From a virus, in the IMG/VR virus record IMGVR_UViG_3300031800_000001, positions 32,001 through 96,000 of that record: 64,000 bases of DNA; one strand, given 5' to 3'. Made by a program: the position numbers and the translations under genes. The notes below the pieces were generated by a model. That model made no database searches. It saw only the letters and a list, made by a program, of their open reading frames with translations, and was not told where the DNA came from. Shown here piece after piece: positions 19,351 through 43,800 of the stretch; the first letter of the stretch is position 1; every line of letters starts with the position of its first letter.

Positions 19351-19382
19351 AAGGCCCGGGGGTTTCTCTCCGGGCCTTTTTT
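19351..19382 (+). terminator. intrinsic terminator after MCP
   Basis: aaggcccgggg...ctccgggcc GC-rich stem followed by T6. Confidence 0.85.
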
Positions 19383-20280: not shown

Positions 20281-23200
20281 ATGGCTCAAAAGGAAGTATC
20301 TGTACAGATTACGCAATTGAGTGCAAGCGTAGAAGCTGCCTCTTCTGCCGGTGCTTCTGTGTCCCAATCTACATCCAGCGCTACAGTAATCAGCGCCAAA
20401 TCAGCAGGAGCACAGACTATCATGGCTGGGCCTCAGGGGCCAGCAGGGCCATCTGGTATATCTGGCATGCAAGGAATATCCGGTATGTCTGGCACAGGTC
20501 CAATAGGACCAAGTGGAGCTACTGGAGCCTCTGGCATTTCTGGAACGCAAGGAGAACAAGGTTCTCAGGGTGACCAAGGCGACCAAGGGATTCAGGGTCC
20601 AAGCGGAGCTACAGGAGTCTCGGGTATTTCTGGAACGCAGGGCATCCAAGGCCCTTCTGGGGCTACTGGCATTTCGGGTATTTCTGGAATGCAAGGAGGA
20701 CAGGGTATTCAAGGAACCCAAGGCGACCAAGGCGACCAAGGCGACCAAGGAATTCAGGGGCCAAGCGGGGCCACGGGAATTATAGGAGCCACGGGCAGCC
20801 AAGGCCCTATAGGACCGCATATCACAGGAATTAGTGGTAGTGGGACAGGGGTAAGCTTCTTTGTCTCCGGAGGAGGCATCCTCGGGCCAATAAACATACA
20901 AGGACCAAGCGGTGCGACAGGCACTAGTGGAATATCAGGGTTAAAAGGAGACTCGGGACCTCAAGGAGATGTCGGAAGTACTGGACCAACGGGCCCTCAG
21001 GGCTCGCAAGGGGATCAAGGCCTTGTTGGCGGAGACACTTTTAACTTTTATTTTAGTACAGATACCATAGACACAGACCCCACAAATGGATATTTAAAAT
21101 TTGGGAATTCCACCTACTCAAGCATAACCGAAATATACGTCGATGATATGGAAAAAGGTGGAGACTCCATAACTGACTGGGTCGATGCCTTAGATGACGT
21201 TTATCAATCAAGAATAAAAGTTTTCTCGGCTAGTGACGCAGAAAAGTGGGCGGTCTTCAAAGTAGTTTCGGACAACACCGCAAAGGTCGGCTATACCCAA
21301 ATCAATGTTAATTATATAGCTCATAGCGATTTATTCGTAGTAGACGAAGAGGTAGCAATGACTTTTGCGCCAGCCGCACAAGGCCCGAAGGGGGATACTG
21401 GACCGACGGGGCCGGGAGGCGCTCAAGGCGATCAGGGGGATCAAGGGGTTGCTGGAACTAGCGGCATTGGAATCACTGGTATAAGTGGGAGCGGAACAGG
21501 GGTAAGCTTTTTATTATCTGGTGGCGGAACTCTTGGTCCAATAAATATACAGGGCCCATCTGGTTTATCTGGTTTATCTGGAATATCAGGAATGCCGGGA
21601 GGTCTGGGAAGCACAGGCCCTCAAGGAGCTCAAGGTGACAAAGGCGACAAAGGCGACCAAGGCGACCAAGGAATTCAGGGAATCCAAGGACCAAGCGGGG
21701 CCACAGGAGCCACAGGAGCCGTGGGGCCGCACATTACAGGCGTAAGTGGCAGTGGGACAGGGGTAAGCTTTTTAGTCTCAGGAGGAGGCGTCATTGGACC
21801 AATAAATATACAAGGGCCCTCTGGGCTTACAGGAATCTCCGGAATGCCGGGAGGACTAGGAAGCGCGGGTCCCCAAGGCGATCAAGGAATCCAAGGGTCG
21901 CAAGGCATACAAGGAACCCAAGGAGACCAAGGTCTTGTTGGCGGAGATAGCTTCGATTTTTATTGGACTACTGATACGGTAGTTTCTGACCCCGGAAATG
22001 GATACATAAAGTTTGATAATTCAACTTATGCAAATGTACAAAAAGTTTTAGTTGATGACCTAGAAAAAGGAGGGGATTCAATAATCGATTGGGTTAATTC
22101 TTTGGATCACGTAACCGGCTCTAGAATAAAAATATTCGACTCGGCCACTGCCGAAAAATGGGCCGTATTTAGGATAGGAAAAGATAATACTGCTGGAGCA
22201 GGATATACCCAGCTTAATGTCAATTATATAGCTCATAGTGACTCTTTCACGTTAAACGAGGCAGTCACATTAACCTATGCACCAGCGGCCAGTGGAGCAC
22301 CGGGGGATGCCGGACCAGCAGGGCCTTCGGGAGCTACGGGAGCTACAGGCGTGGCGGGAGAGGGAACAGGGGACTTCGGTGGATATAGCTTTAGTTTTTA
22401 TTATAATAGCGGGTATTCAGAAGCTCTTTGGTCCGAGGGGCCGGGAACCAGCGGGCTTAAGTTGGTGACTCCGAATAATGATATACGTGACACGTCGGGC
22501 ATAGATATATCTTATACTAATTATCGCGGGGGAGATGCTACTTACTGGCTTGAAGATTTTGGAAATTATGGTGATGTAGCAAATAGAGGCATATTAAAAT
22601 TATTCCATCGAGATAAAGTCAATGTAGAGTGGGCTGCATTTTTGATTACTGGCCAGCCTGCAAGCCGTGATTCTTGGTCAAACGTAGGAGTTACATGGAA
22701 GTCCTCGTCGTCGAGCAGTCCGCCATTGTTTACTCACTCTGGGGAAACCGTAGTCTCTTTCGTTCCAGCTGGCCCAACCGGACAAGCAGGAGCAGCAGGA
22801 GCAGCAGGAGTAGGCGGCGGTGGCGGTGGTGGTGCTCCAGCCACTGGACATACTGGAGCATTTCAGTTCCATGGAGGCTCTATGAATGACGTTGGCGTGG
22901 GTTCGCTTTCGGGGTCGAATGTACTTTTTGAAGGGCACGACTTCAACCAATCGACTACCGGATTTGAATACGCAAACGCAATAGGGATTGGTCAGGAATT
23001 TCAAGAGCTAGCCCTCGGAAACATAGCTCAGTACCCGAACCCAGTCACGCCGGAGTACATCTTAGATTGCGGCATGTCGGGAACGTTGGACGTAAGGGGC
23101 GAGGTGTGGGTCAGTGGAAACCTTGTGCCTCATGTAAGCGGAGGCTTTAATTTGGGCTATAATGAGCCCGCCGGTCTCGGGGCAGAAACAAGAGGTAAAT

Positions 23201-24327
23201 GGTGGGGGGAGATCTTTGCAGATAGTGGGACTTTTCATGGGGCCGCAGTTAACTCGCTTGACGTTATAAATCACGGGGCAAGAGTAAGCATCGGGGCAAG
23301 CCCCGACTACATGTATGGATCGGCAGGCGGATCATTATATTGTCCTACCGGCTATTTTGACAAGATAGGATCATGGCTAGATGCACAGGGACAACCCCCA
23401 CTGAATACAACTATGCATGGAGTTTTCCTTCACCAAAATTGTCTGCATTTCTCGCCAGAGCTTGACGGAGGGGCAGATCTTGGAACCCCAGATTTATATT
23501 GGAGCAGTTTGTATTTAAACAACAACAGTCTCGTAATGTCAGGCGTAGGAATGACCGGCGCTGTGCATATCGGGTTCGATAATGATCACAACCTTAGAAT
23601 AAGCGCACCAAAGACTGGGAACGAAGTAACGATAAGCGGAACACCCTTAACGGGTTATTCTCCTAATACCGTGGCCGACATAAGGTTCTCCGGCACTGGA
23701 CTGTCGGAGGCCACAACGCTAAGGGCCAATAGCGTTGGAGAGCTAACTATATCAACCCAAGGAGACGCAGGTGGGCAGACAACTATTTCTAATGCTAAAA
23801 TAACTTCGCCAATTTTTTCTGGAAACTCTGGGGTTTTTCGATCAGGAATAAACCTAACAAACACTGATCTTGGCATAACATATTTTGACGTACATGATGA
23901 TGGTAATGCAGTAGGAGACATGACATTCTGTGGTCAAGTTAATCAATGCGTAGAAGACTTGGGGGAATTTGGCGAGACCGGATGGGTACCGGACCCATAT
24001 GGTATAGGCATGGGTGGTACTGGATTCAGCATAAATATGGCTGGCAGCAACATGAAGAAATTCAACTTATGCTCGCATGCTCGCGGGCTTAATTTGACGA
24101 ACATAAAGGCTGGGCGTTCAGTGACAATCCAGATCTTCGCAACAGACGGCTGTTTGACAGCAGACGATAATTATTACAGATTTTTAAGCGGTAACAACCT
24201 CAATTTTGTGGGAATTGAGCCGCATACCCTAAAGATAGGAAAAATGGGGCTACTGACAATAACCGCATACGGCACCGGCGCTAGCTCTTGCGTTTGTCAC
24301 TGGGCTGAATCGGATTACACGGTTTAA
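20281..24327 (+). CDS. collagen-like (Gly-X-Y) tail/head fibre protein
   Basis: Long GXY tracts (GPSGATG, GDQ, GIQ, GIS) interrupted by repeated globular modules; C-terminal small beta domain. Confidence 0.85.
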   Translation: MAQKEVSVQITQLSASVEAASSAGASVSQSTSSATVISAKSAGAQTIMAGPQGPAGPSGISGMQGISGMSGTGPIGPSGATGASGISGTQGEQGSQGDQGDQGIQGPSGATGVSGISGTQGIQGPSGATGISGISGMQGGQGIQGTQGDQGDQGDQGIQGPSGATGIIGATGSQGPIGPHITGISGSGTGVSFFVSGGGILGPINIQGPSGATGTSGISGLKGDSGPQGDVGSTGPTGPQGSQGDQGLVGGDTFNFYFSTDTIDTDPTNGYLKFGNSTYSSITEIYVDDMEKGGDSITDWVDALDDVYQSRIKVFSASDAEKWAVFKVVSDNTAKVGYTQINVNYIAHSDLFVVDEEVAMTFAPAAQGPKGDTGPTGPGGAQGDQGDQGVAGTSGIGITGISGSGTGVSFLLSGGGTLGPINIQGPSGLSGLSGISGMPGGLGSTGPQGAQGDKGDKGDQGDQGIQGIQGPSGATGATGAVGPHITGVSGSGTGVSFLVSGGGVIGPINIQGPSGLTGISGMPGGLGSAGPQGDQGIQGSQGIQGTQGDQGLVGGDSFDFYWTTDTVVSDPGNGYIKFDNSTYANVQKVLVDDLEKGGDSIIDWVNSLDHVTGSRIKIFDSATAEKWAVFRIGKDNTAGAGYTQLNVNYIAHSDSFTLNEAVTLTYAPAASGAPGDAGPAGPSGATGATGVAGEGTGDFGGYSFSFYYNSGYSEALWSEGPGTSGLKLVTPNNDIRDTSGIDISYTNYRGGDATYWLEDFGNYGDVANRGILKLFHRDKVNVEWAAFLITGQPASRDSWSNVGVTWKSSSSSSPPLFTHSGETVVSFVPAGPTGQAGAAGAAGVGGGGGGGAPATGHTGAFQFHGGSMNDVGVGSLSGSNVLFEGHDFNQSTTGFEYANAIGIGQEFQELALGNIAQYPNPVTPEYILDCGMSGTLDVRGEVWVSGNLVPHVSGGFNLGYNEPAGLGAETRGKWWGEIFADSGTFHGAAVNSLDVINHGARVSIGASPDYMYGSAGGSLYCPTGYFDKIGSWLDAQGQPPLNTTMHGVFLHQNCLHFSPELDGGADLGTPDLYWSSLYLNNNSLVMSGVGMTGAVHIGFDNDHNLRISAPKTGNEVTISGTPLTGYSPNTVADIRFSGTGLSEATTLRANSVGELTISTQGDAGGQTTISNAKITSPIFSGNSGVFRSGINLTNTDLGITYFDVHDDGNAVGDMTFCGQVNQCVEDLGEFGETGWVPDPYGIGMGGTGFSINMAGSNMKKFNLCSHARGLNLTNIKAGRSVTIQIFATDGCLTADDNYYRFLSGNNLNFVGIEPHTLKIGKMGLLTITAYGTGASSCVCHWAESDYTV
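20821..21825 (+). repeat. three copies of a ~31-aa repeat ITG[IV]SGSGTGVSFxxSGGGxxGPINIQGPSG (starting 20821, 21472, 21733)
   Basis: Visible in both protein and DNA (cagggg-taagctt in all three copies). Confidence 0.85.
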
Positions 24328-24329
24328 CG

Positions 24330-25382
24330 ATGTTCATTACACAGCCACGGAATTGCGCTCTTATTGGAAGCATACCATCAGGAATATTTGAAGGTGACGG
24401 TTCAATTCTTCCGAAGACAACTGGGCACTCGACTTCCGATAACGGCGGAACAAAGCTGGTTGGGTACTTTAACCCAAATGATACAGGTAACGTGTCGGGC
24501 TCGACATACAACAACCTAGTTAGTGGTGAAATGGACTTGGCCATCTACAACGGAATGTCTTATACCACGGGATTTGTCGATGGAGCGGGTTTCTGGAGCG
24601 AAACAAGCGGCACGTTGTTTGACGGCAAAATCGTGGACGCGTCGGATTTTAGACTTACTCGTTATTTTGAGAGCGATGGAGCGGATGATTTTTTAGGACC
24701 TATGTTGTCGTTTTCCGAAGGCTACATCCCCGACGTCCAAGAAACGGGTCTTTATTTAAATGCCGGTGACGGACCCTCGCCTCACGGTGGATATCAAAAT
24801 CACGGTTGGGCGATGTGTATGTGGGTAAATTTTCCTCAGCAAGCTTGGGGAACGAGTGGTAATGTTTTGTTTAGCTGTGGACGCGATGTTATGGATGATA
24901 GATCAACCCTAGCATATACTCTAGAGACGGGGTTTGCATATCAATTTGGTTTGGGGGCAACATATGCCGACACGCAAACACATATTAAACCAATAGAAGC
25001 CGATAGATGGTATTTTGTTGCGTATCAAAACAACGGCACTCGCAGCTTTCTTTACAATGATGATGGAACCGAGATCTCCGTTGATGGCAAGATCCTTCCT
25101 CTCCGACACGAATATGGTGAGTTTTTAAAGCAGGGGAGGTATGCTATGCCAATATACATAGGGGGGTACTACGAGCAGTACGAAATAGACCCACCACTAG
25201 CCGAAAGGGCATATGATGTATCTAAATCAGGAACAAAATTCGGAATGATGCTCCTATACAGCGGCGAAATAGGAATCAATAGAATTATACAAAATTATAT
25301 AGCTACAAGAGATATGTATAACAGAAATAGCGGAGAAAAAGATCCATATTTTGTAGAAAGCCAAGATACATTTACATATTAA
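24330..25382 (+). CDS. LamG/concanavalin-A-like lectin-fold protein
   Basis: LVGYFNP, YFESDGADDF, WAMCMWV, RWYFVA and FGMMLLY...IIQNY. Confidence 0.7.
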   Translation: MFITQPRNCALIGSIPSGIFEGDGSILPKTTGHSTSDNGGTKLVGYFNPNDTGNVSGSTYNNLVSGEMDLAIYNGMSYTTGFVDGAGFWSETSGTLFDGKIVDASDFRLTRYFESDGADDFLGPMLSFSEGYIPDVQETGLYLNAGDGPSPHGGYQNHGWAMCMWVNFPQQAWGTSGNVLFSCGRDVMDDRSTLAYTLETGFAYQFGLGATYADTQTHIKPIEADRWYFVAYQNNGTRSFLYNDDGTEISVDGKILPLRHEYGEFLKQGRYAMPIYIGGYYEQYEIDPPLAERAYDVSKSGTKFGMMLLYSGEIGINRIIQNYIATRDMYNRNSGEKDPYFVESQDTFTY

Positions 25383-25430
25383 AAATAATTAGCAAGAACA
25401 CGATCTGAACCCTAAAATAGAAAGAAGAAG

Positions 25431-26345
25431 ATGGATCTAGGAAAGAAAAATAAACAAATATTTGTAAAACAAATAAGCACATCAGGATGGGAGCAAGGCG
25501 GAGCCCATACTGACTATGAGAATGTTTTCAAAATAGGAAATCCGGGTGACGGAATATTTATTTCTTCAGAAGGAGATAGATTTACAATAACCAGCATTAC
25601 TGGCTCAAACATCACCGGCAGTTTCGCAAGCTCGGGGATTTATGTGGGAAACACAGAGAACACTCTTCTTTTCAAATCTGTAATAGGAGGCAGTGGAATA
25701 CAAATCACCGGTTATACGGGGGATTTGGTTATAGACTTTACGGGTAAACCTAGCCCAGAAGGACAAAACATAGGTACTGATTCGTCGGCTACTGGTTTAA
25801 GTGGGGTATTTAGGGGGATAGACCAAGCGGCGGATGGAACTAGTATTTTCCAATTCAGAAGCTTAACTGGTGCCGGAAATATTATTATCACAGGCGACAC
25901 GGGTAGATTAATTATAAGCGGAAATAATAGCGCCGGCGCTGGAGGTGGCGGAGGTGGCGGGGGTGGCTATACGGGTCATCATATTTATAGTGGAGGAACA
26001 AATCCGGAAGATAGCGGAATTGGGATGATTGAGCAGAGCGGATTTACGGGAAGTTTTGCGCAGTCATTTTCGCAAATGATGGTAACCGGAGATATAACTG
26101 GATTTAGTATGTCCGGAATGACAACTGGTGCGGCAGCCACAATAATGATAACCTGCCCAACCGGAAATAACGTAAGCTTCATGAACGAATTCACATTCAT
26201 AGGAGAAGAACCCGTGGCTTTTCACTCTGGAAAAACAGGCCTACTTGTTTTTACTTGCTTTGGCACTGGAGGCCCCGGGATTTCCCCACATGAGCACAAT
26301 ACGCTTCCAAGCGGAGTGTTAGCGGCATACGGAGTACAGGATTAA
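25431..26345 (+). CDS. short fibre protein, extremely S/T-G rich
   Basis: LLFKSVIGGSGIQIT / FQFRSLTGAGNIIIT fibre repeats; C-terminal domain similar to that of 20281..24327. Confidence 0.75.
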   Translation: MDLGKKNKQIFVKQISTSGWEQGGAHTDYENVFKIGNPGDGIFISSEGDRFTITSITGSNITGSFASSGIYVGNTENTLLFKSVIGGSGIQITGYTGDLVIDFTGKPSPEGQNIGTDSSATGLSGVFRGIDQAADGTSIFQFRSLTGAGNIIITGDTGRLIISGNNSAGAGGGGGGGGGYTGHHIYSGGTNPEDSGIGMIEQSGFTGSFAQSFSQMMVTGDITGFSMSGMTTGAAATIMITCPTGNNVSFMNEFTFIGEEPVAFHSGKTGLLVFTCFGTGGPGISPHEHNTLPSGVLAAYGVQD

Positions 26346-26347
26346 GG

Positions 26348-27325
26348 ATGCATATAACAGACTGGAAAAGCACTGCTTGGCTACGAGCATTGGGACAGAA
26401 GTCTAGTTCAATCGTCGATGACGTTGAATTCAGGCCCGGAAAAGTTATATCCAAAAATCTTATTGGTCACTTTGATCCGAATAATATTTCTTGTTATAAC
26501 GGCGCTGTGGGAGGGGATACATACAGCAATTTGGTGGCCGGTCAGGAAGATTTATGTCTTTGGAATATGGATACGGTGCCGACGTTTGGCGAAACGCCTG
26601 ATTTTGAATCACCGACAAGCACCTCGGTGGGCTATTTTATGGGAGATGGATTAGACAACTATATGCGCGAATGCGGGGGATATGCCGGAGGGTTCGCCCT
26701 TAATGTATCAAACGATTTTACCCTGAATGTCTGGGTTCAAGTGAATGCGGTTGCGCTTGGAAAACTAGGAGGCTCATCGTGTCCAAGATATGGAGGCTAC
26801 ATTGGGGTCGGTGCTATAAACGACAAGTCTAACGGTGGGTGTGCGGTTGGAGTTGTAGGAGACGATAGTGGGAACTACGGCAGGATTGCCCTGTTCGCGC
26901 CGTCGGCGGATAGCCCGGCGGCGTATAGTGATCGCCGCTCAATCGGGTCGAAGATTGAGTCAAATAAATGGTATATGTTTTCACTAGTAAAAGAAGTTCT
27001 TAGTCCAAATTTTGATAGAATTACTTTGTATTTAAATGGGGTTTACCAAAGGTTAATTACGGGGGCGAATTGCACGCAAACTGGCACAGGACAACACAAA
27101 GGAGAACTGATTCCGGCTGGCTATATTGGTGGGGCCCAACAGGTAGTTGTTATGGCTTTATGGCAAGAATATTACGGCATGGGTTCGCCTTCCCCCGCGT
27201 CGAGTGCTAATTTTGGCCACATTTTGGTATACAACAGGGCATTAAAACACTCAGAATTAAGACAAAACTATTTAGCGCTAAATCAACTCTATTATCCATT
27301 TAGAGAAGGAGCAATAATACAATGA
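26348..27325 (+). CDS. LamG/concanavalin-A-like lectin-fold protein
   Basis: LIGHFDP, YFMGDGLDNY, FTLNVWV, KWYMFSLV, ITLYLNG and ILVYNRALKHSELRQNY. Confidence 0.78.
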   Translation: MHITDWKSTAWLRALGQKSSSIVDDVEFRPGKVISKNLIGHFDPNNISCYNGAVGGDTYSNLVAGQEDLCLWNMDTVPTFGETPDFESPTSTSVGYFMGDGLDNYMRECGGYAGGFALNVSNDFTLNVWVQVNAVALGKLGGSSCPRYGGYIGVGAINDKSNGGCAVGVVGDDSGNYGRIALFAPSADSPAAYSDRRSIGSKIESNKWYMFSLVKEVLSPNFDRITLYLNGVYQRLITGANCTQTGTGQHKGELIPAGYIGGAQQVVVMALWQEYYGMGSPSPASSANFGHILVYNRALKHSELRQNYLALNQLYYPFREGAIIQ

Positions 27326-27567
27326 GAGAAGACCTAAAATTTGTTATATTAAACGAGAACGAAGTGGGCTATGTTGACTTCACAGAAGTCCTTCAAACTA
27401 GCCCAGCGTCAATGAGATATTCTTTAGATAGAAGCAAAACATTTGTAAAATATAAAGGGGAGCAGCCCGAGTTTATATTTGAAATTACAAACGATCTAGT
27501 GGGAAGAAAAGAATACTCACACCAAGAGTTTTTGGAAATACTTAGCACAGAAGAATGGAACCGATAA
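27322..27567 (+). CDS. small fibre-associated hypothetical protein
   Basis: ATGA overlap; VDFTEVLQTS...RYSLDRSKTFVKY...YSHQEFLEILSTEEW. Confidence 0.65.
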   Translation: MREDLKFVILNENEVGYVDFTEVLQTSPASMRYSLDRSKTFVKYKGEQPEFIFEITNDLVGRKEYSHQEFLEILSTEEWNR

Positions 27568-29846
27568 AAGAACCACCCGAAGAGTATACGCTGGCTCTGG
27601 GAGACGTGATAGTTGGCTTACGCAAACTAGACGACAGAACATTTGCGCCCAAAAATTCCAAAATTTTCAACTCCGTTTTAATCAAAAATGAAAAATCATA
27701 CCTAACGGATAGGTTCAGAGTTTGCCTATCTACAGCAAACCAAGAAGAGGATATTCTAAATATACTGAATGATATAGAAGAAAAAATGGAAGGTAAAAAA
27801 TGGATTTTCTTCGTTGCCGATTATTCGAAGGGCGATGAGGCTTTCGAAAAAATAAAGCAACACACCACCTCTGCGGGTTCATTTTTCCCGATAAAGCTTA
27901 AACACTGTAAGGACGAGTTGTCCGCCGAAAAGGCTATAGGTAAAATATCTGACATCTACGAAGAAGAGTATCCATATAAGTTAGATTTTAGAAAAGAAAA
28001 CCCCTCAAAAATTGACCACAAAATACAAAGCTTTTGCTTCGTGGCCACAAAAGAAGTAAAAGAAGAAGCAGCAATTCTGATTAAAAGCCTCAGGGGATTT
28101 CATTCTGAGCCAATATATGTTGTTTGCGACAAGGAAACTGAATATTTCTTATCATGCATAGACTTGGACTTGAATGATATTTTCTTCAGGCTCGAAATGG
28201 AACAGAAGATTTTAGACGCTATAGACAAAAAATATAATTTTGAAAGAAAAAATAATTATCACCGGCCAGAATGCATCATAAAAAAAATGGACTGCATGAG
28301 TTACGCCTTGGAAAACCACGACAACGTGTTCTTTTTGGATAGCGACATGATTGTGTTAGATTCTCTTCAGGAGAAGTTCGACAAAGACATTTTCCTGTCT
28401 CCTCACTATCACAAGACGGGCACACCCGACTCGAACAACTCTGTTGATTATGGGTTCTTTAATGCAGGGTACGTGTTTTGTGCGAATTCAGATTTGCCAA
28501 ATTTCTGGAAGGACGCTTATATAAATGATTCTGATTTTTTTGAACAAGAATGCATGAACCAAATATGTGAGAAATTTGATGTCGGATTTTTTAGTAACCG
28601 TCACAACGTAGGGTTTTGGAGAAAAAACTTTAATGCAAAAATTGAACCAAAAAGTATACATGTCCACGCGGTAGATAACGAAAATTTACAAAGGAACGCT
28701 GGGCTCAAATCAGAAAACAATAAATTAAAATTAAAAACAATTAAACTGCTGCAGTCTAGCGAAAACGAAAACCATCACGAGATATTAGAATTTATAAATA
28801 AAATAGATAGCGGGTGGGGAGGGAGACAGGAGAGTTTTAGGTTCGCAACATCAAACCCCAATGGAAAAATAAACTTAGGTTTGCAAACCGTTTTCGATTC
28901 CCATAGGAGCGGCTGGAAATATGCTGTGAGCGCACTGGCTTCTTTACACAACAACAATGGAGTTTTGTTAGACGGATTCTTAGAGAATAATTTCGCTTGG
29001 CATTTAGAAGAATACAGGAGAGAAAGAAAAGTTATACCCTATAAAATCCCTTGGGTTGGGTTTTTCCATAACCCACAGAACATGCCGCCTTGGTTTTTCA
29101 ACAAGTATTCCTTACAGAACATTATTGCGGGAGATGAGTTCCAAGAAAGCCTCGAGCATTGCGTGGGGCTATTCACGTTATCGGAATATCATGCAAAATA
29201 CCTAAGGGAAACAACCGGCAAGACGGTATGCTCGCTTATTCATCCAACAGAAATACCCGAAACTCTTTTCGACTATGATAAATTTTTAAAAAATAAAAAC
29301 AAACAAATAGTAAACATTGGCTATTGGTTGAGAAAATTAAATTCCATCTACTCAATCCCCATAGCCTCAGGAAACGAATACGTTAAACTCAGGCTGATTC
29401 CCTATTCTTCTGCTAGACCGCTGGAAGTAATAGACAAGATGCTGCGGAAAGAAAAAGATATATACGACATAAGAATAGAACAAAAATATATAGAAAACAC
29501 AATAACAAAGAGCTCCCTTTCAAACGAAGACTACGATACACTTCTTTCCGAAAATATAGTCTTTTTAGATCTTTATGATTCTAGCGCAAATAACGCAGTG
29601 ATAGAGTGTATGGCTCGCGCAACGCCGCTCCTTGTTAACCCGCTGCCGGCAGTAATAGAATACTTGGGCAAGGATTATCCATTTTACTACGACTCCCTTG
29701 AGGAAGCCGCGGGAAAGGCCGAGAACTTTGAGCTAGTAAAAGAAACTCACGAATACCTTAAAGATTGCGAAATCAGAAAAAAATTATCTCAAGAGCATTT
29801 TAAAAAATCGTTTGAAGAAAGCGAAGTGTACGGTCTATTAAAATGA
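27555..29846 (+). CDS. multidomain glycosyltransferase
   Basis: Central GT-A domain (FFLDSDMIV DxD motif, FNAGYVF, FEQECMN); C-terminal GT-B-like domain (SANNAVIECMARATPLLVN...VIEYLG); degenerate GT2-like N-terminus. Confidence 0.78.
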   Translation: MEPIKEPPEEYTLALGDVIVGLRKLDDRTFAPKNSKIFNSVLIKNEKSYLTDRFRVCLSTANQEEDILNILNDIEEKMEGKKWIFFVADYSKGDEAFEKIKQHTTSAGSFFPIKLKHCKDELSAEKAIGKISDIYEEEYPYKLDFRKENPSKIDHKIQSFCFVATKEVKEEAAILIKSLRGFHSEPIYVVCDKETEYFLSCIDLDLNDIFFRLEMEQKILDAIDKKYNFERKNNYHRPECIIKKMDCMSYALENHDNVFFLDSDMIVLDSLQEKFDKDIFLSPHYHKTGTPDSNNSVDYGFFNAGYVFCANSDLPNFWKDAYINDSDFFEQECMNQICEKFDVGFFSNRHNVGFWRKNFNAKIEPKSIHVHAVDNENLQRNAGLKSENNKLKLKTIKLLQSSENENHHEILEFINKIDSGWGGRQESFRFATSNPNGKINLGLQTVFDSHRSGWKYAVSALASLHNNNGVLLDGFLENNFAWHLEEYRRERKVIPYKIPWVGFFHNPQNMPPWFFNKYSLQNIIAGDEFQESLEHCVGLFTLSEYHAKYLRETTGKTVCSLIHPTEIPETLFDYDKFLKNKNKQIVNIGYWLRKLNSIYSIPIASGNEYVKLRLIPYSSARPLEVIDKMLRKEKDIYDIRIEQKYIENTITKSSLSNEDYDTLLSENIVFLDLYDSSANNAVIECMARATPLLVNPLPAVIEYLGKDYPFYYDSLEEAAGKAENFELVKETHEYLKDCEIRKKLSQEHFKKSFEESEVYGLLK

Positions 29847-30979
29847 ACGGAGATAAAAGACACAAAATGGCAATCCGTAAAAGGATTAGGAAAGATAATT
29901 TCCTAGATTCCGAAGGGATAGTTAATACCCCCAGAAAGTCAGAAGGAAAATTTTGCAAGAATCCTTTTGACCAATTTGAAATTCACCCTAACGGTATGGT
30001 GTCTGTTTGCTGCATGAGTTGGCTTCCCGAGAAAATAGGAAACGTCAAAGAAGAAAGCGTTAAGGAGGTTTTCAACTCGGAAAAAGCACAGGAAATAAGA
30101 GAAAGCATATTGGATGGTTCTTTCAAATACTGCGATCACAAACTATGCCCATACATACAGAACGGATCTTTGCCGGACAAGGAAGAGGTTACTGATCCTC
30201 GTCATAAATCAATTATAAAAAACAACAAAACAAAAGACCTTGAGCCGACGTTTTATAATCTTTGCTATGATGAGTCCTGTAATTTAAGCTGCCCAAGCTG
30301 TAGAAAAAATAAGATTCTTTATTACGAGGGCAAAGTTTATGAAGAAAAGAAAAAAATACAAGATAATATAATAAAACATATCTTCGGAAAGCCTCACGAC
30401 AATTACTGCCTTATTAACGTAACTGGCTCGGGAGACCCATTCGGATCGAAGCTTTTTAGGGAACTGTTGTTTAGTATAGATGGAGAAAAATTTCCTAGGG
30501 TATTTTTTAATCTACAGACAAACGGGGTAATGTTCACCCCCAAGTATTGGGAAAAGATGAAAAGAATACAAAAAAACATCAACACAGTTATGGTTTCATA
30601 TGACGCCGGAACACCAGAAACATATAAGATTACCCGCAGGGGAGGGGATTGGGATCAGCTTCAAAAAAATATGAAATTTCTGAGCTCTCTAAGACAAAAA
30701 GGTCTTATCAATGAGCTAAGAATAGACTGCGTTGTCCAAAAAGCTAACTACAAAGAATTAGATAAGCTAGTGAAGATAGGTTTAGACTTGAAAGTGGATA
30801 AAGTATTTTTTTCGCTACTCGTAGATTGGGGCACATGGACACCCGAAATATACAAACAAAATTGTATATGGAAAAAAACACATCCAGAATTTGAAGAATT
30901 TACAAAGGCTTTGCTGAATCCAATTTTCAATGACCCGATTGTGGACTTAGGAAATTTAACGGAATACAAAAAATGTTAG
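29843..30979 (+). CDS. radical SAM protein with N-terminal SPASM/twitch domain
   Basis: CNLSCPSC, TGSGDPF, LQTNG, SYDAG and TRRGG; N-terminal C..PF...G.VSVCC...IGN...YC...C. Confidence 0.88.
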   Translation: MNGDKRHKMAIRKRIRKDNFLDSEGIVNTPRKSEGKFCKNPFDQFEIHPNGMVSVCCMSWLPEKIGNVKEESVKEVFNSEKAQEIRESILDGSFKYCDHKLCPYIQNGSLPDKEEVTDPRHKSIIKNNKTKDLEPTFYNLCYDESCNLSCPSCRKNKILYYEGKVYEEKKKIQDNIIKHIFGKPHDNYCLINVTGSGDPFGSKLFRELLFSIDGEKFPRVFFNLQTNGVMFTPKYWEKMKRIQKNINTVMVSYDAGTPETYKITRRGGDWDQLQKNMKFLSSLRQKGLINELRIDCVVQKANYKELDKLVKIGLDLKVDKVFFSLLVDWGTWTPEIYKQNCIWKKTHPEFEEFTKALLNPIFNDPIVDLGNLTEYKKC

Positions 30980-31680
30980 TATTTAATAAATTAAAATGCG
31001 TGTTCACGCCCATATTGAAAGTGGGCACGAATAGTTTTTTTTACTATTGGGGAGACGTAATGTATGGAGAAGAAGACTCCTTGGTTAAGAAAGTGAAAAA
31101 AGGCACTGGTGGAGGTCACTCCACCAAACTTAGACATAGGGTTAAGAGGGATTTTAACGTGGAGTGGGACCCATCGGTTCGAGAGTCTGTTGCGGGCTAT
31201 TATAAATTTGCTTTTGTAAGAAATCCGTGGGTCAGGGCCGTGTCGGCTTTTCGGGAACTAATAAGGCGGTATCCATTTGGGCAAACCGTGGTAAACGAAG
31301 AAGCGGGGTTAACTTATTACGAAATATATGATTTAATGGATGGGCATGTGGATTTTGAAAATTTTATTAATTTTGTCGTAAATAGAGAAAGGGATCACAC
31401 AAATGTAATTAATGGGCATTGGAGAACGCAAGTCGTGACTCTTTGTATGCATCATAAGGAAGGAGCTATGGAATATGATTTTTTTGGTAAATTGGAAAAT
31501 GTTGATGATGATCTAAATAAGGCTCAAAAGCGTTTGGGTCTTGAAGAAACTAAATTATCCAAAGAGCATGAAACTGCGGCATACGATTATAAATTGTACT
31601 ACAAAAACAAAAAAATAATCGACATGGTCGGGGAATATTATAAAGAAGACATAGAGAAATTCGGTTATGATTTCGCATAA
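30973..31680 (+). CDS. sulfotransferase family 2 (carbohydrate sulfotransferase-like)
   Basis: 5'-PSB PILKVGTNS, 3'-PB FVRNPWVRAVSA, HWRTQ, GKLEN and YYKEDIEKFGY. Confidence 0.88.
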   Translation: MLVFNKLKCVFTPILKVGTNSFFYYWGDVMYGEEDSLVKKVKKGTGGGHSTKLRHRVKRDFNVEWDPSVRESVAGYYKFAFVRNPWVRAVSAFRELIRRYPFGQTVVNEEAGLTYYEIYDLMDGHVDFENFINFVVNRERDHTNVINGHWRTQVVTLCMHHKEGAMEYDFFGKLENVDDDLNKAQKRLGLEETKLSKEHETAAYDYKLYYKNKKIIDMVGEYYKEDIEKFGYDFA

Positions 31681-32302
31681 GCATAAAATAATTTTCGTGC
31701 CCATCCCAAAGAACGCCAGCCGCTCTATCGCTTTTCTTATTAATGGGGATGAATCGGATTATGGACACTCTACTGCCAAGGGTCTAATGAGAAAGCATAG
31801 GGAATATTGGGATGATTATTATAAGTTTTGTGTGGTAAGAAACCCTTATGATAGGATTGTGTCTGCATATCATCATTTCAAAACCACGCAATTCAAGCGA
31901 GGCGTAAGGGGTTCGAAGCCAAGGCGTATGCAGAATTTACTTAAACAATATTCGGGTTTTCAGGATTTTGTTTTGAATTATCTTAAAGACGCAGAGTTGG
32001 TTCAGTTCCGTTTAGTGTCGGGGGCTGATATTTCCATCAGCCCTACTGTGCATTTTTACCCTCAAATTATGTGGCTGTTAAACTCAAATGGTAAAATAAA
32101 TGACAATATAAATATATTTAAATTTGAAAAATTAGACGAAGTAGTACAAAAGCTAACGACAGAATACGATATGTCTAACGAGTTTGGCCACCTCAACAAG
32201 GGCAAACGAAACCACTACTCTGAATACTACACAGACGAGCTTTATGAAGTTATTTACAAGAAGTACCAAAAAGACTTCGAGTTATTAGGCTATGACAGAT
32301 AA
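31667..32302 (+). CDS. sulfotransferase family 2
   Basis: PIPKNASRS, VVRNPYDRIVSA, HFYPQ, FKFE and YQKDFELLGY. Confidence 0.9.
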   Translation: MISHKHKIIFVPIPKNASRSIAFLINGDESDYGHSTAKGLMRKHREYWDDYYKFCVVRNPYDRIVSAYHHFKTTQFKRGVRGSKPRRMQNLLKQYSGFQDFVLNYLKDAELVQFRLVSGADISISPTVHFYPQIMWLLNSNGKINDNINIFKFEKLDEVVQKLTTEYDMSNEFGHLNKGKRNHYSEYYTDELYEVIYKKYQKDFELLGYDR

Positions 32303-33623
32303 AATTTATTGCACCAGAGCTTTTGATCATGTTCAATTATTGGACAATGGAGAAATGACACCGTGTTGTCCTCCGTGGGTTGATCATTATTCTATAGGCA
32401 ATATAAATGAACAATCATATGAGGAAATTTGGAACGGCGAAAAAGCTCAAAAATTTAGGGAGTCCATATTAGACGGCTCTTTTCGATATTGTAACGCTAA
32501 ATCTTGTCCACATTTACAATCCCAAACACATTGCGTCGGGACAGTAAAACAATTAAAACAACGCAAATTAATAAATGATTCAATACTTTACGACATACTG
32601 CATGAAGATGTCGTTTTAAATCATGGGCCTCATGAAATACAATTTTGTTACGACAGATCATGCAATCTATCTTGTCCATCATGCAGGAGAGGAATAATAA
32701 TGGTTTCTGGCAAAAAGAAACAAAAATTGTTAGATATGCAAAACAAGCTACAAGCAGACTTTCTAAAAGACGCGGATCGACTTATCGTTACTGGATCTGG
32801 AGACGCATTTGCTAGTCCTATTTTTCGAAAATTCCTGCAAACATTCACAAAAGAACAAGCGCCGAAGCTGCGGCATATAAATATATTGACAAACGGCTTA
32901 CTCATTAAGAAGCACTGGGCAACGCTTAGCGAGTATGCCAAGGAAAAAATTCAATACATTAGCGTATCTATAGACGCAGCAACGCCGGAAACATATACTA
33001 TAAACAGGAGGGGTGGAGACTGGAATTTGCTACATGAAAATTTAAAATTTGTTGAAGACTTGAAGGCTGCTAATGAAATTAAAGCATTTCAGACTAGTAT
33101 CGTGGTACAAGATAATAATTTTCGTGAACTGTTTGATTTTATTTTAATGTGTGAAAAATATGCCGTGGACTCTGTTCAGTTGCAAATTATTGAGCCAGAT
33201 TTTATACGGGATTTGGGATACGGTGATTATCTTGAGGAATGGATTCAAAAAGCTGTCCACGAAAAGGTTCATCCTAATCATAACGAATTATTAAACATTC
33301 TCAAAGATGACTTCTTTAATATTTATATAAACAGATATAACGGTGAAGCTCCAGCCGGAACAGCCGTTTCAATGGGTCAATTGTTTAATTTAAGAAACGG
33401 TAGCGATATATCGCAATATGATCAACTACTAGAAGAAGAAGAAAAACTAAAGTTAGCTAAAAAAAGCTCGCTAAAGGACATATGGTACAATAACAAAGTT
33501 TATTTTGTCGCTCCCGAAACCCTGAAAAAAATAAACGGAACCGACACAGCCAAGCTACCAACGGGAGAAACGATCATCTGGGACGAAGATAAAGAGAAGT
33601 GGGCAAAATACCATGCCTATTAA
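32292..33623 (+). CDS. radical SAM protein with N-terminal SPASM/twitch domain
   Basis: CNLSCPSC, TGSGDAF, ILTNG, SIDAA and NRRGG; N-terminal CTRAF...PCC...IGN...YC...C. Paralogue of 29843..30979. Confidence 0.88.
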   Translation: MTDKIYCTRAFDHVQLLDNGEMTPCCPPWVDHYSIGNINEQSYEEIWNGEKAQKFRESILDGSFRYCNAKSCPHLQSQTHCVGTVKQLKQRKLINDSILYDILHEDVVLNHGPHEIQFCYDRSCNLSCPSCRRGIIMVSGKKKQKLLDMQNKLQADFLKDADRLIVTGSGDAFASPIFRKFLQTFTKEQAPKLRHINILTNGLLIKKHWATLSEYAKEKIQYISVSIDAATPETYTINRRGGDWNLLHENLKFVEDLKAANEIKAFQTSIVVQDNNFRELFDFILMCEKYAVDSVQLQIIEPDFIRDLGYGDYLEEWIQKAVHEKVHPNHNELLNILKDDFFNIYINRYNGEAPAGTAVSMGQLFNLRNGSDISQYDQLLEEEEKLKLAKKSSLKDIWYNNKVYFVAPETLKKINGTDTAKLPTGETIIWDEDKEKWAKYHAY

Positions 33624-34284
33624 CAGAAAAAGCGAGTTGCTCTTCATTCACATCCCCAAAACAGGCGGAACAAAAATAGAAGAAATACTAGATATGAAAT
33701 TCGCGGGGGATGACCCTAAGGTTTCAAGCGAAAAACTATATGGGTTTGTAAGAATATACGACGAACTCCATGAACTACAGCACTTAACATACAAACAAAC
33801 ATTAGATTTTGGGCTGGTCGACAAAAGCCTGTTCGATAAATGCTATAAATTCGCATTCGTCAGAAATCCGCTTGACAGGGTTGTGTCTGAATATTTTTGG
33901 TTAGGATACAAATACTTTTCTAAGTTCGAGGACTTCGTTGAGTTTTTACATAAGAGAAAAGGAGAACCGGATGTTCGCGGTACTGTAGAAAATTACATGT
34001 CTCTCGACTGGCTTTTAAATTCCCCCTTCTATGCGCCCCAACATAAATTCATTTGCGACAGAAGAGGTAAATTAATGGTTGATTTTTTAGGCAGATTTGA
34101 AAACTTCCCTAAAGATTTAGCTACCCTATTGGACAATCTAGGAGTGGAATACGACGAAGAATTTTTATTTAAAAAAGTAAATGCTACGAAACACGAAAAA
34201 TATACCACTTACTACAACAAAAAAACAAGAGACATGGTTAAATCCATATATAAGAGAGATTTCGAAATATTTGGTTACGAATAA
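33613..34284 (+). CDS. sulfotransferase family 2
   Basis: HIPKTGGTK, FVRNPLDRVVSE, GRFEN and YKRDFEIFGY. Confidence 0.9.
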   Translation: MPINRKSELLFIHIPKTGGTKIEEILDMKFAGDDPKVSSEKLYGFVRIYDELHELQHLTYKQTLDFGLVDKSLFDKCYKFAFVRNPLDRVVSEYFWLGYKYFSKFEDFVEFLHKRKGEPDVRGTVENYMSLDWLLNSPFYAPQHKFICDRRGKLMVDFLGRFENFPKDLATLLDNLGVEYDEEFLFKKVNATKHEKYTTYYNKKTRDMVKSIYKRDFEIFGYE

Positions 34285-34298
34285 GTGTAAATATCAGT

Positions 34299-34550
34299 AT
34301 GCCTTACTATGACAGCGTAAACCTACTCAAAACTAACTGTACAGTGGAATGGGATGGTGACCCCGGCAAAAAGATCTGCTCTGCTCGCGGAGGAGAGTTA
34401 ATACATCCCGGGTGGCCCCTACAGAGAGATGTCAGGGCCAGAACAAGAAGATTAGACATAGACAGACTGGGGTCAATAAGGTACGACCAGCCCGGGAGAA
34501 GGGTTTCTGACGGTAAGTTTCCACGTTTTACAGAACAATGGATTAGTTAA
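34299..34550 (+). CDS. hypothetical protein
   Basis: GTGTAA at 34285-34290, 8 nt upstream. Confidence 0.6.
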   Translation: MPYYDSVNLLKTNCTVEWDGDPGKKICSARGGELIHPGWPLQRDVRARTRRLDIDRLGSIRYDQPGRRVSDGKFPRFTEQWIS

Positions 34551-34576: not shown

Positions 34577-35086
34577 ATGAAAGCCGTAGATATTGCAGAC
34601 CAAATCCACAGAGAATTAGGAAGCCCGACAGACCTAGGCATAGCCGCTATAGCATTTTGGGTACGCACAAACATTGGCGCGCTGAATAACTACCTGAATA
34701 CCAGCTATGCAATTAATCAATCTTCGTATGAAATAGAGAGAGATATCAATGGTACAGCAACCGCAATAGGTATTAATGAAGGGGGTATACTCAAAAAAAT
34801 GTATACAATACACTATTACGACAATAAACTGAGGAGCGTATTATCCGCAGCAACCTCAGATGCGGTTATCGCTTTGTCTTCAGACGGGTCATCAATTAAA
34901 AAGATTAACAAAAACGAACAAGCAAAGCTCTATGCGACCATACGCGGCGCAAGCCAATCAGAATTGGAGCGCATGGTGGGTCAATACAAGCTGAACGACG
35001 TACAACCATTACAGGTGGCAGGGGACGACGATCAATCGGCGTATATACTTCCGAATAGAGAATATGTAAGAATTAGGAAATACTAA
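34577..35086 (+). CDS. putative head-tail adaptor
   Basis: Position at the start of the neck/tail block; helical; GTGTAA at 34561-34566. Confidence 0.55.
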   Translation: MKAVDIADQIHRELGSPTDLGIAAIAFWVRTNIGALNNYLNTSYAINQSSYEIERDINGTATAIGINEGGILKKMYTIHYYDNKLRSVLSAATSDAVIALSSDGSSIKKINKNEQAKLYATIRGASQSELERMVGQYKLNDVQPLQVAGDDDQSAYILPNREYVRIRKY

Positions 35087-40846: not shown

Positions 40847-43800
40847 ATGGCGGATAGTTTTATCACACTAGGAACAAGGTTAGATAGCGCATCGCTGCAA
40901 AGCACTTTAAGGCAAATAAACAGCGCTATTACCCGAGTAGAAAGGAAAGGGGTTAACATTAAAGTTGACTCTGGGAAATTTACTAGACCCCTTGGGAAGA
41001 TCACTGGTGCCACAAATGAATTCACAAGATCACTCGAAGCATCAAATGCGCGTGTTTTAGCGTTTGGAGCTTCTGCCGGGGCAATTTTTCAAGTTCAAAG
41101 GGCGTTTGAATTTTTACTTAAAAGCACTATTGAGGTCGAGAAAAGACTTCAGGATGTCAATGTAATTTTGGCGCAAACAGACCGAGGCCTCGCCAAGTTC
41201 GGAAACAACCTTTTCTCGATAGCTCAAAAAACGGCACAGAGTTTCGATACTGTCGCTGAAGCAGCGACAGAATTAGCTAGGCAAGGCTTGACAGTCGAAG
41301 AGACCCTTCAGAGGACAAACGACGCCCTCATTCTTACGAGGCTTTCCGGTATGGATGCGGCAGCATCAGTTTCTTCCTTGACAGCAGCATTAAATACGTT
41401 CAACAGGGAGGCGTTAACTTCTACTCAGGTAATTAATAAGCTTGCCAATGTGGATGCGGCGTTTGCTGTAAGCACAGACGATTTAGCCCAAGCCATGAGG
41501 CGCGTGGGAAGTACCGCTCAGGACGTTGGCGTATCCTTCGACCAACTTCTTGCAATTACAGCCTCTGTTCAGCAAACAACTGCTCGCGGTGGCCCCGTAA
41601 TTGGTAACGCATTAAAAAGTATATTCACAAGAATCCAAAGAAAAGACACTCTTAATCTTTTAGAAGAGTTGGGGATAAAGGTGAGGGACTTAGAGGGGCA
41701 AATGCTACCCGCAATGAATGTTCTTGGCAATTTGGCCAAAAAGTTTCCCGAGCTATCTAAGGCTCAACAAGCTCATACTGCTGAGGTGACTGCTGGCGTA
41801 TTCCAAATGAATAACTTAAGAGCGATACTCGCTGACCTTGGGAAAGAATATTCGATTTACGATAAAGCCGTGCAGATATCGACAGGGTCTACAAATGAAG
41901 CAATATTAAGAAATGAGATGCTCAACAAAACCCTCGATGCCCAAGTAAAAAAGACGATGGCTTTAGCCACGCAGGCAGCCAAGAAAATAGGAGACCTAAC
42001 CTTAAGGCCGGTCTCAGAGAGAGTGGTTGGGATCATGCAGAAAGTTTTGGGCGATATTAATGATAAAGACACAAATGACATAGGCGGAAAGATAGCGCAA
42101 GGGATGCTGTCCGGAATTGGAAATTTTTTATCGGGCCCGGGGCTACTTTTGTTAACTGGATTCCTTGGAAAACTTGGAATGAACCTAGCTAAATTCGTTA
42201 AGGAATCTGGAGCTCAATTTATGGGGCTGAACACGGCTGCGGTTCAACAAAAAAGCATACAAGAAGGAATAGCCAGAATATTGCAATCTCAGCCACAACT
42301 TATAGCAAGGGCAGCGACATCCACACAGGCAAGAGTGGTGGTAGAAAGAGAAATAATCGGTATACTCGAACAAGAGACTCTTGCGATGCTAAACTTGGAG
42401 AAGGTTGCCCAAAGAATGGCTGGCATGATGGTAAGAGGCGGGGTAACCGTAAGTGGTTCAGGACAAGTGGCGGCACCGGCGTATTTGAGGGGGAGAGGAC
42501 CCAAGGCTGCGGCGAGGGGGACCGGCATTTCGGCACAAGGGCACATACCGAATTTTGCTAAAAAAAGCGAAGTAAGCGAAATAATAAGCGCAGCCGAGGG
42601 CGGATACAAAGCGGGGCAAATAAAACAAATGAAAATGCCCGGGCTTGGAACAATGACCTACAACTCAAGAGAACAGGTTAAACATGTTCCCGGCTTTGCT
42701 CAGCCATTCATTAATCCACCACTGCACTCAAAGGCCGGCAGGCAACATAGGGAAAAATCAGTGGCTGAAACCGGTGTCGATCCTTATGCAGTTCCAAATT
42801 TTGCCAACCCAGCGATGCTTTCCTTATATGCTCGAGGCAGATTGGGGGTGGGTACCATAGGTATGCCCGGCAAAGGAGCCGCTGCTTCTTTAGAAAGTTT
42901 TGGAATAGGGAGATTTTATAAATCCGGGCCCAAGGTTCCCAAAGGTCAAAAAAATGTATTAAGGACTGCTTATGATCATGCAATAGCGGGTCATGGTGTA
43001 TCAGCCGTAAAGGGGAAAATAGCGTTAGGAGAAATAGGAGAAGTAGCAGTCGCGAGAGCTACAATGCCAAGCGATGTTGCAAAACGATTTTATAATGATC
43101 TATTGTCTCCGGCGATGGGCAAGACAGCGTACAAGGGTTTTACTGATGCACTTGGAGGGAAAACCAAGGCGGCGGGCATAGCGCAAGATATAGTATACCA
43201 TCAAAACGGAACAGCGCGGTCATTCCAAGGGGCAAGAGAAAGGGCAATGGAAGTGCTTGCAAATAATCCCGCCGCTAAAGGTTCATTTTTCGCAAAAGCA
43301 GAATTGACTCATTCTACTTTGTTAGAAAAAGCCCTTTTTGAACGCGGTGCCGGTCAGCATCTTCTGCCATTCAGCAAGGTGAAGATGGGGCAAGGAGAGA
43401 CAATTCTAGACGCAATAACTGTAAAAGGAGGAAAAGTAATTGGACCTGCTGAATTCAAACCAACTTTTCATGCGGGAATGTCCGGCAGAGATGCCAGAGG
43501 AAGCCTGTCGTACAAGTCGTTATTCTCTTCTGACTCAGGTAAAGAGGGCGGACTATTGCATTTTTTACGGTCAGGAATGGAAAAGAATATTGCCCGCGGT
43601 GGCTACAAAGACAAATCCGGTCAATTCCATGGCCCAGAGAAGTTAAGAGGCGATCTAAACAAATTAGATGATTATATAAGTACCGCAAAAACGTCAGACT
43701 TCGCTAGAATGCAAAGAGTTTCCCAAGGTGAAATTACGCTTGAGGGAGCTAAATCCGCAACAGCAATAAAAGATATTTTTGGCAAGGATGTAATGAAACT

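Follow-up and report, generated by a model that had tools for sequence, protein, structure and literature searches.

A compact cassette of glycosyltransferase, radical SAM and sulfotransferase genes in the morphogenesis operon of an uncultured marine phage, with a possible role in building a sulfated glycan on the virion

What does a phage do with a glycosyltransferase, two radical S-adenosylmethionine (SAM) enzymes and three sulfotransferases whose genes stand among those for its own particle? The question arises from a 64,000-nucleotide stretch of viral DNA, called the window here, which comprises bases 32001-96000 of the linear 116-kb IMG/VR phage contig IMGVR_UViG_3300031800_000001; the contig is ~71% complete and comes from an uncultured marine phage lineage without a cultured relative. 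A sequence-only reading of the window had placed six enzyme genes at 27555-34284, regarded them as coupled to a fibre operon and proposed a glycosaminoglycan-like pathway acting on virion proteins or on the host surface. An open reading frame (ORF) check recovered all six genes on the + strand, in the order and at the coordinates that this reading had given:

27555-29846, + strand: p763, a three-domain glycosyltransferase of 763 amino acids, called on predicted fold and motifs
29843-30979, + strand: rSAM1, a radical SAM enzyme whose twitch/SPASM domain is N-terminal (Pfam SPASM and Radical_SAM)
30973-31680, + strand: ST1, a Sulfotransfer_2 protein (PF03567, 80.3 bits)
31667-32302, + strand: ST2, a Sulfotransfer_2 protein in a swappable position (PF03567, 64.5 bits)
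32292-33623, + strand: rSAM2, a radical SAM enzyme whose twitch/SPASM domain is N-terminal and which has a beta-rich C-terminal extension (Pfam SPASM and Radical_SAM)
33613-34284, + strand: ST3, a Sulfotransfer_2 protein (PF03567, 73.9 bits; phrog_3347, 8.7e-25)

Each start overlaps the previous stop by 4-14 nt (start/previous stop 27322/27325 for p81, the small gene that precedes p763, then 27555/27567, 29843/29846, 30973/30979, 31667/31680, 32292/32302 and 33613/33623), and a 14-nt gap separates the end of the cassette from the next gene at 34299. This layout supports the view of the six genes as a single, translationally coupled cassette of enzymes within a morphogenesis operon. Our best overall reading, which we give an even chance of being correct, is that the cassette encodes a pathway, dependent on 3'-phosphoadenosine 5'-phosphosulfate (PAPS) and nucleoside diphosphate (NDP)-sugars from the host, by which a short sulfated glycan is assembled and edited, with virion proteins as its likeliest carriers.

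The identification of p763 as a glycosyltransferase rests on fold and motifs, because no family profile matches it: the full protein gave no hit in Pfam (even at E<=10), NCBIfam or PHROG, and its isolated middle part gave a weak Pfam match to DUF273 (0.0022) and nothing else. An AlphaFold (AF2) model built on 40 homologues, with a mean predicted local distance difference test score (pLDDT) of 80, consists of an N-terminal alpha/beta domain (residues 1-145, 27555-27989), a GT-A domain (residues 155-427, 28017-28835) and a GT-B domain (residues 435-763, 28857-29843). The GT-A domain aligned to LgtC (Z 17.1, root-mean-square deviation (rmsd) 3.2, 226 aligned residues) and to glycogenin (Z 16.4), and the GT-B domain to SenB (Z 20.6, rmsd 3.6, 275 aligned residues) and also to the GT4 enzymes HepE, PimA, BshA, PglA and MshA at Z ~17; Pfam Glycos_transf_1 was not matched by the GT-B domain. 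In the 40 homologues D262-x-D264, H369 and H371 are conserved at >=90%, and D262, D264, H369 and H371 may well be the metal ligands of a GT8-like GT-A enzyme. Of the hallmarks of a GT8-type GT-A domain, the fold, the DxD motif and the distal histidine are present and the match to a family hidden Markov model (HMM) is absent. On fold and motifs, p763 is thus predicted to be a glycosyltransferase that joins a GT8-like GT-A to a GT4-like GT-B domain, so that the earlier designation of this gene, while finding no Pfam match, is borne out by the predicted fold with its LgtC and SenB matches.

Both p763 glycosyltransferase domains are of the retaining type, and the Foldseek matches of the model include LARGE1, which is a two-domain co-polymerase. 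In most relatives the GT-A domain is fused to a sulfotransferase-like domain and not to GT-B (e.g. P0226), the ~565-amino-acid relatives having sulfotransferase-like C-termini; GT-B domains in relatives were counted by direct BLAST against p763 residues 440-763. The analogy with glycosaminoglycan synthesis, in which a polymerising step had been envisaged, finds no support in this analysis: no sign of a polymer was found, with two retaining-type domains in p763 and a GT-A plus sulfotransferase arrangement in most relatives. Distant relatives of the p763 GT-A domain, 26-29% identical, also occur in giant-virus metagenome bins (GVMAG contigs L152-L164).

For the radical SAM enzymes and the sulfotransferases, all five family assignments made earlier were upheld by Pfam matches above the cut-offs, which are 29.5 bits for PF04055, 21.5 bits for PF13186 and 22 bits (gathering) for PF03567 (Sulfotransfer_2). 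In rSAM1 the SPASM match covers residues 38-98 (46.2 bits) and the Radical_SAM match residues 146-285 (44.1 bits); in rSAM2 they cover residues 7-72 (56.5 bits) and 123-254 (36.7 bits). The CX3CX2C motif is retained in both, as C146/C150/C153 in rSAM1 and C124/C128/C131 in rSAM2. Across 60 sequences C124, C128, C131, C67 and C72 of rSAM2 are invariant and C7, C25 and C26 are conserved at >=90%, and the five conserved cysteines C7, C25, C26, C67 and C72 would fit one auxiliary cluster of the twitch type, as in BtrN; the N-terminal domain also gave a profile match to the auxiliary-cluster domain of BtrN (E 2e-4). The placement of this domain is unusual. The SPASM/twitch domain normally lies C-terminal to the radical SAM core, as it does in BtrN, whereas in rSAM1 and rSAM2 it lies N-terminal. 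The same order, an N-terminal Cys-rich twitch/SPASM region followed by the radical SAM core, characterises NF033640 (N_Twi_rSAM), which was the best NCBIfam match of both proteins and covered them nearly end to end, at 85.6 bits for rSAM1 and 71.4 bits for rSAM2. Because these scores lie below the cut-off of 170, we regard rSAM1 and rSAM2 as relatives and not as members of NF033640. The N-terminal-twitch family is large, with matches in at least 410 cellular and at least 351 viral stretches; a literature search for N-terminal twitch radical SAM enzymes (NF033640) found no paper, one on PDB entry 9DFU was equally unproductive, and we know of no reaction assigned to the family.

The AF2 model of rSAM2 (pLDDT 93) came closest to DesII (Z 16.4, rmsd 4.5, 257 aligned residues) and BlsE (Z 14.8, rmsd 3.3, 223 aligned residues), with a small lead over MoaA and viperin (Z 14.6). 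DesII and BlsE are enzymes that act on nucleotide-linked sugars. Identity of the cassette enzymes to DesII, BlsE and BtrN is 14% or less; SuiB, SkfB and CteB were among the fold matches, and when the PDB was searched by sequence with the radical SAM profile, viperin-like enzymes scored best (E 3e-6). The earlier proposal that these enzymes epimerise or oxidise a sugar names just one among several conceivable chemistries, the best structural neighbours being DesII and BlsE. Sulfatase maturation of the anSME type was considered and rejected, since the match to it was a weak one confined to the SPASM domain and no sulfatase gene was found. The beta-rich C-terminal extension of rSAM2 (residues ~375-443, 33400-33620) has no counterpart in rSAM1 or in cellular homologues, and a 44-amino-acid piece of it, 52% identical, stands alone at 15767-15898 of the related contig L090.

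All three sulfotransferases keep the PAPS-binding lysine and the RNPxxR..S motif, with K16 in PILKVGT and VRNPWVRAVS in ST1, IPKNASRS and VRNPYDRIVS in ST2, and IPKTGGT and VRNPLDRVVS in ST3; K16 and V83-R-N-P..R89 are invariant in 8 sequences. Loss of catalytic residues, which had been raised as an objection that would undo the scheme, is thus not what we observe in the PAPS motifs of the sulfotransferases or in the CX3CX2C motifs of the radical SAM enzymes. ST1, ST2 and ST3 are only 25-31% identical to each other and are therefore old paralogues that probably differ in specificity. The remark that the window contains no PAPS-synthesis gene holds for the entire 116-kb contig as well: no APS (adenosine 5'-phosphosulfate) kinase, ATP sulfurylase (cysC/sat) or PAPS reductase was found on it, nor any sugar nucleotidyltransferase, NDP-sugar epimerase/dehydratase or thymidylate-synthase-type enzyme. 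The host must therefore supply both PAPS and sugar nucleotides.

Do these enzymes act together, and on sugars? We counted the genes that neighbour members of the radical SAM family in 78 viral loci (150 proteins) and 80 cellular loci (122 proteins). Among the viral neighbours GT1 occurred 11 times, Sulfotransfer_2 10 times, further radical SAM/SPASM proteins 7 times, NTP_transferase and PfkB 4 times each, and cytidylyltransferase, GDP-mannose dehydratase and RmlD 3 times each. The bacterial and archaeal neighbours comprised Methyltransf_24 (16), DUF6473 (7), GT1/GT4 (6), GT2 (4), Sulfotransfer_3 (3) and ABC transporters. One radical SAM homologue, P0112, is fused to GT2, and in a myophage fragment (L005) a homologue 62% identical to rSAM2 comes after an RfbA-type nucleotidyltransferase. 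These neighbourhoods, viral and cellular, tie the radical SAM family to glycan genes. Searches with our own HMMs placed Sulfotransfer_2-type genes beside the radical SAM gene in 22 of 77 viral and 0 of 80 cellular loci, and beside GT-A in 31 of 79 viral loci; all three enzyme types together were confined to the nearest relatives. Combinations of them nevertheless recur. L192, L204 and L210 carry an overlapping triad of a GT-B gene (46-50% identical to the C-terminal domain of p763), a sulfotransferase gene and an rSAM1-type gene (56-59%), and in L174-L178 GT-B and sulfotransferase genes are followed by an 812-amino-acid fusion whose halves match rSAM2 (46%) and then rSAM1 (44%). On this basis we consider it very probable that the cassette constitutes one sugar-tailoring pathway. 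The contigs with the 812-amino-acid fusion (~6001-8439 in L174-L178) are five in number, 28-145 kb long, and have no other genes in common with this phage.

The position of the cassette bears on where its product might go, and the features that frame it are:

19351-19378, + strand: intrinsic terminator with a 12-bp stem, 8 GC pairs and a T-run
20281-24327, + strand: collagen-repeat protein of 1,348 amino acids, a candidate acceptor (Pfam Collagen 1.5e-32, 6 stretches)
27322-27567, + strand: p81, small and acidic, at the island's left edge
34299-34550, + strand: p83, small and basic, at the island's right edge
34577-35086, + strand: p169, first gene of the conserved right-anchor block (homology in relatives)

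Further upstream lie a terminase gene (5318-7153), a tubulin homologue (10741-11925), a ClpP-like protease gene (12671-13414), a weak match to a cement protein (17566-18129) and a 392-amino-acid gene (18155-19333) that, judged by its position, is the probable major capsid gene. Between 17000 and 36900 the sole strong + strand terminator is the one at 19351-19378, after the probable capsid gene; being the last before the cassette, it delimits the transcription unit on the upstream side. A terminator directly 3' of a probable capsid gene is a layout typical of a highly expressed capsid with downstream read-through. The collagen-repeat protein has ~118 G-X-Y triplets, 44 of them with Ser or Thr at Y, and is followed by three proteins related to it. 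Pfam detected no LamG domain in 24330-27325 at E<=0.01, and PHROGs gave almost no matches for the flanking structural genes. Downstream of the island come a conserved five-gene block (p169, p146, p195, p304b and p435) and then a 6,037-amino-acid ORF at 40847-58960. From gene layout alone, the cassette would be expressed late. It is indeed AT-richer than its flanks, as had been noticed, with a GC content of 0.36-0.38 versus 0.44-0.49 upstream, and the difference arises at second codon positions (GC2), owing to the high Gly and Ala content of the flanking proteins. A foreign origin suggested by the low GC was rejected, as the third-position GC (GC3) of the cassette, 0.32-0.42, equals that of the rest of the contig.

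The slot that holds the cassette is variable. Across 15 relatives p81 and p169 enclose a stretch of 2.5-7.3 kb with the glycosyltransferase plus varied sets of radical SAM, sulfotransferase, GT2, Capsule_synth and class I methyltransferase genes, and p169 (42-95% identity) follows directly after the island in 15 relatives. The comparison with the close relative L087 shows how the content changes: at the nucleotide level the two are 88.6% identical as far as 30966 and 90.6% identical from 32299 onward, and these two break points are gene boundaries of ST1 and ST2. Between them, ST1 is only 54% identical at the protein level in L087, and a class I methyltransferase replaces ST2 in L004 and L087; ST3, in contrast, is 99.6% identical. 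The exchange of tailoring enzymes between close relatives is therefore gene-precise. L204 and L210 have a portal-like protein (46% identical) and tubulin (63-65%) in common with this phage, and in a different slot of the head-gene region they carry another glycan cassette (L210:4156-10377, L204:3355-7035) with GT-B, sulfotransferase, rSAM1-type, methyltransferase-like, 429-amino-acid, P-loop sulfotransferase-like and 230-amino-acid genes.

From these results we propose a soluble, cytoplasmic pathway for glycan building and tailoring that would be co-transcribed with the virion genes; no cassette protein has a membrane-spanning hydrophobic stretch. p763 would take NDP-sugars from the host, its GT8-like GT-A domain setting the first sugar on the acceptor and its GT4-like GT-B domain adding a second. 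rSAM1 and rSAM2 would abstract a sugar C-H and, in the manner of DesII, BlsE, BtrN and NeoN, oxidise, deoxygenate/deaminate or epimerise the sugar, whether that of the NDP-sugar donor or the one already bound, and ST1, ST2 and ST3 would transfer sulfate from host PAPS to different hydroxyls. The acceptor would be exposed virion proteins of the same operon, the collagen-repeat fibre and its paralogous neighbours, and the particles would end up with a negatively charged sugar coat that is variable. That the acceptor is the virion we infer with about as much confidence for as against. The full version of this proposal, in which uncultured marine phages coat their own particles, on collagen-like fibres or head decoration, with a radical-SAM-edited sulfated glycan that is reshuffled gene by gene, we hold tentatively, as falling short of an even chance.

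Other targets for the same enzymes have to be weighed against the virion. A cassette that remodels a glycan of the host envelope, whether lipopolysaccharide (LPS) O-chain, core or capsule, to block superinfection or to stop progeny from sticking to debris, is in our judgement unlikely, yet O-chain modification has been proposed for structural-region islands with fibres, GT8-type glycosyltransferases, LPS-type sugar genes and radical SAM (PMC7029224), the bacterial radical SAM homologues cluster with GT4, GT2, ABC transporter and methyltransferase genes in a manner typical of surface polysaccharide loci, and heptose-type PfkB and cytidylyltransferase genes are found among the viral neighbours. 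The island, on the other hand, has no flippase, polymerase, ligase, initiating phosphoglycosyl transferase or membrane protein; it lies in a presumably late morphogenesis operon and is translationally coupled to virion genes, whereas exclusion functions would be expected early; and the phage appears lytic and large. None of these three points is decisive. Direct modification of virion proteins, with radical SAM enzymes acting on fibre peptides like maturases of peptides that are made by the ribosome and modified after translation (RiPPs) or like anSME, and with sulfation of Ser, Thr, Tyr or modified residues, is made quite improbable by the radical SAM neighbourhoods, which in viruses and cells are dominated by sugar-nucleotide and glycosyltransferase genes and not by precursor peptides, by the GT2 fusion and the NTP_transferase adjacency, and by relatives that swap the sulfotransferase for sugar-type methyltransferases, GT2 or Capsule_synth; moreover, neither a RiPP recognition element nor a leader peptide was observed. 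What speaks for it is that SPASM/twitch enzymes are often peptide maturases, with SuiB, SkfB and CteB among the fold matches, that a collagen-repeat protein is encoded 3 kb upstream of the cassette, and that Iyer et al. 2010 (PMC2938197) predicted bacterial operons that hydroxylate and then sulfate collagen-like and tail-collar proteins. A soluble product or a modified nucleic acid, that is, a sulfated or edited nucleotide-sugar, a nucleoside metabolite or DNA hypermodified with glycans, seems to us very improbable: the viperin-like enzymes that lead the PDB sequence matches are nucleotide dehydratases, and DNA-glycosylating phage glycosyltransferases are well known (cited in PMC12619734), but the viperin fold matches span only the common radical SAM core, the contig lacks a thymidylate-synthase-type hydroxymethylase, and the cassette sits in the structural operon and not in a replication module.

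A sulfated glycan built on the virion also has several findings to contend with. With no PAPS or NDP-sugar genes on the contig, activity hangs on the host. The coupling to the fibre operon is looser than had been claimed: in this phage the cassette lies in the morphogenesis operon with overlapping starts and stops, but the link does not extend to all relatives, since 6 of the 13 found through the tail-side protein p304b have no glycosyltransferase upstream of p169 (7 have one), and the triad of L204 and L210 occupies another slot, which lies between tubulin gene and scaffold region. Divergence of GT-A/p81 showed no significant correlation with that of structural proteins (Spearman 0.20, p 0.45, n 16), and the idea that the glycosyltransferase is a core gene of the structural module was dropped on this account. 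Both radical SAM enzymes fall under the NF033640 cut-off, and their sugar chemistry, like the product, the acceptor and the timing, is something that we infer. Lipid-linked precursors at the inner membrane face are substrates of soluble glycosyltransferases too, so missing transmembrane helices are compatible with a host-envelope target. Finally, Ser/Thr-rich acceptor tails of the mycobacteriophage type were not seen.

How does the cassette compare with known systems? Comparable islands with glycosyltransferases and radical SAM genes are already known from published genomic work on marine myophages: in T4-like pelagimyophages and cyanomyophages, hypervariable host recognition clusters (HRCs) were reported between VrlC and gp14 by Zaragoza-Solas et al. 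2020 (PMC7029224). The present island resembles the HRCs as a hypervariable structural-region island with fibres, GT8-type glycosyltransferases, sugar genes and radical SAM, in which close relatives differ by gain and loss of cassettes. It differs in being compact (6.7 kb) and rich in sulfotransferases, which PMC7029224 does not mention, that study favouring the host O-chain as target; and this phage, which has no cultured relative, carries the 6,037-amino-acid ORF, putatively of tape-measure type, and would therefore belong to a lineage other than the T4-like HRC myophages. In mycobacteriophages, capsid and tail proteins receive glycans from glycosyltransferases encoded in the structural operon (Freeman et al. 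2023, PMC10527164, as cited in PMC12619734). Soluble phage glycosyltransferases inside a structural operon are the likeness to our case, in which glycosylation is a prediction; as described in the citing article, the mycobacteriophage glycans sit at the C-termini of capsid and tail-tube subunits, and neither radical SAM enzymes nor sulfotransferases are mentioned.

Searches of 50,697 GenBank phage records at DNA and protein level left the cassette DNA, rSAM2, p763, p435 and the probable capsid protein unmatched; only ST3 gave matches, all distant. Phage genes of phrog_3347 in Ralstonia phage phiRSL1, Synechococcus phage ACG-2014f, Stenotrophomonas phage DLP_6 and Pelagibacter phage Mosig are 25-33% identical to ST3, and that of ACG-2014f adjoins a heptose epimerase and a GT25 gene. 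They are single genes outside radical SAM cassettes, whereas three sulfotransferases occur here, and the function of phage sulfotransferases has been called unclear (PMC10580990). New in the present case are the different, uncultured lineage, the compact form with three sulfotransferases, the fusion of GT-A to sulfotransferase, the rSAM2/rSAM1 fusion and the gene-precise swaps. Should the glycan indeed be borne by the particle, marine phages would diversify their surface chemistry with sulfate, methyl groups and radical-edited sugars, which would bear on how they recognise hosts, adhere to marine gels and mucus, and evade adsorption traps; the island would resemble an O-antigen locus of the virion, the particle would be the first sulfated one in a bacteriophage, and the N-terminal-twitch radical SAM family would gain its first function. 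The compact cassette, the triad of GT-B, sulfotransferase and radical SAM genes, and the fused radical SAM pair offer a small, defined set of enzymes for the chemistry of the family.

The genes at the two edges of the island deserve a brief description. p81 was found directly upstream of the glycosyltransferase wherever it was detected (24 ORFs, several of them from overlapping loci of the same contigs). It is present in a single copy in the contig, and its family counts 745 representatives at E<=1e-3 as stand-alone proteins of ~80 amino acids. In P0344, p81 forms the C-terminal domain of a 561-amino-acid secreted protein whose N-terminal region weakly matches the tetanus-toxin heavy chain (E ~0.008) and looks by eye like a lectin-type jelly roll. 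Given the 745-member family and this fusion to a lectin-looking secreted region, p81 is probably part of the fibre module and not of the enzyme set, and the family as a whole may be a fibre-associated module; the ESM Atlas yielded no usable match for p81. At the other edge, p83 had no family match in Pfam, NCBIfam or PHROG. It is 100% identical in L087 and 98.8% in L089, where its neighbours are 83-97% identical, and its GC content is 0.48 beside the 0.36 of the cassette. The tubulin homologue upstream (10741-11925, + strand) is a protein of 394 amino acids with a Tubulin/FtsZ GTPase domain (Pfam 4.4e-12), encoded between a portal-like gene and the ClpP-like protease gene, and it is thus a phage tubulin that occurs outside the known jumbo myophages, in a phage of ~160 kb.

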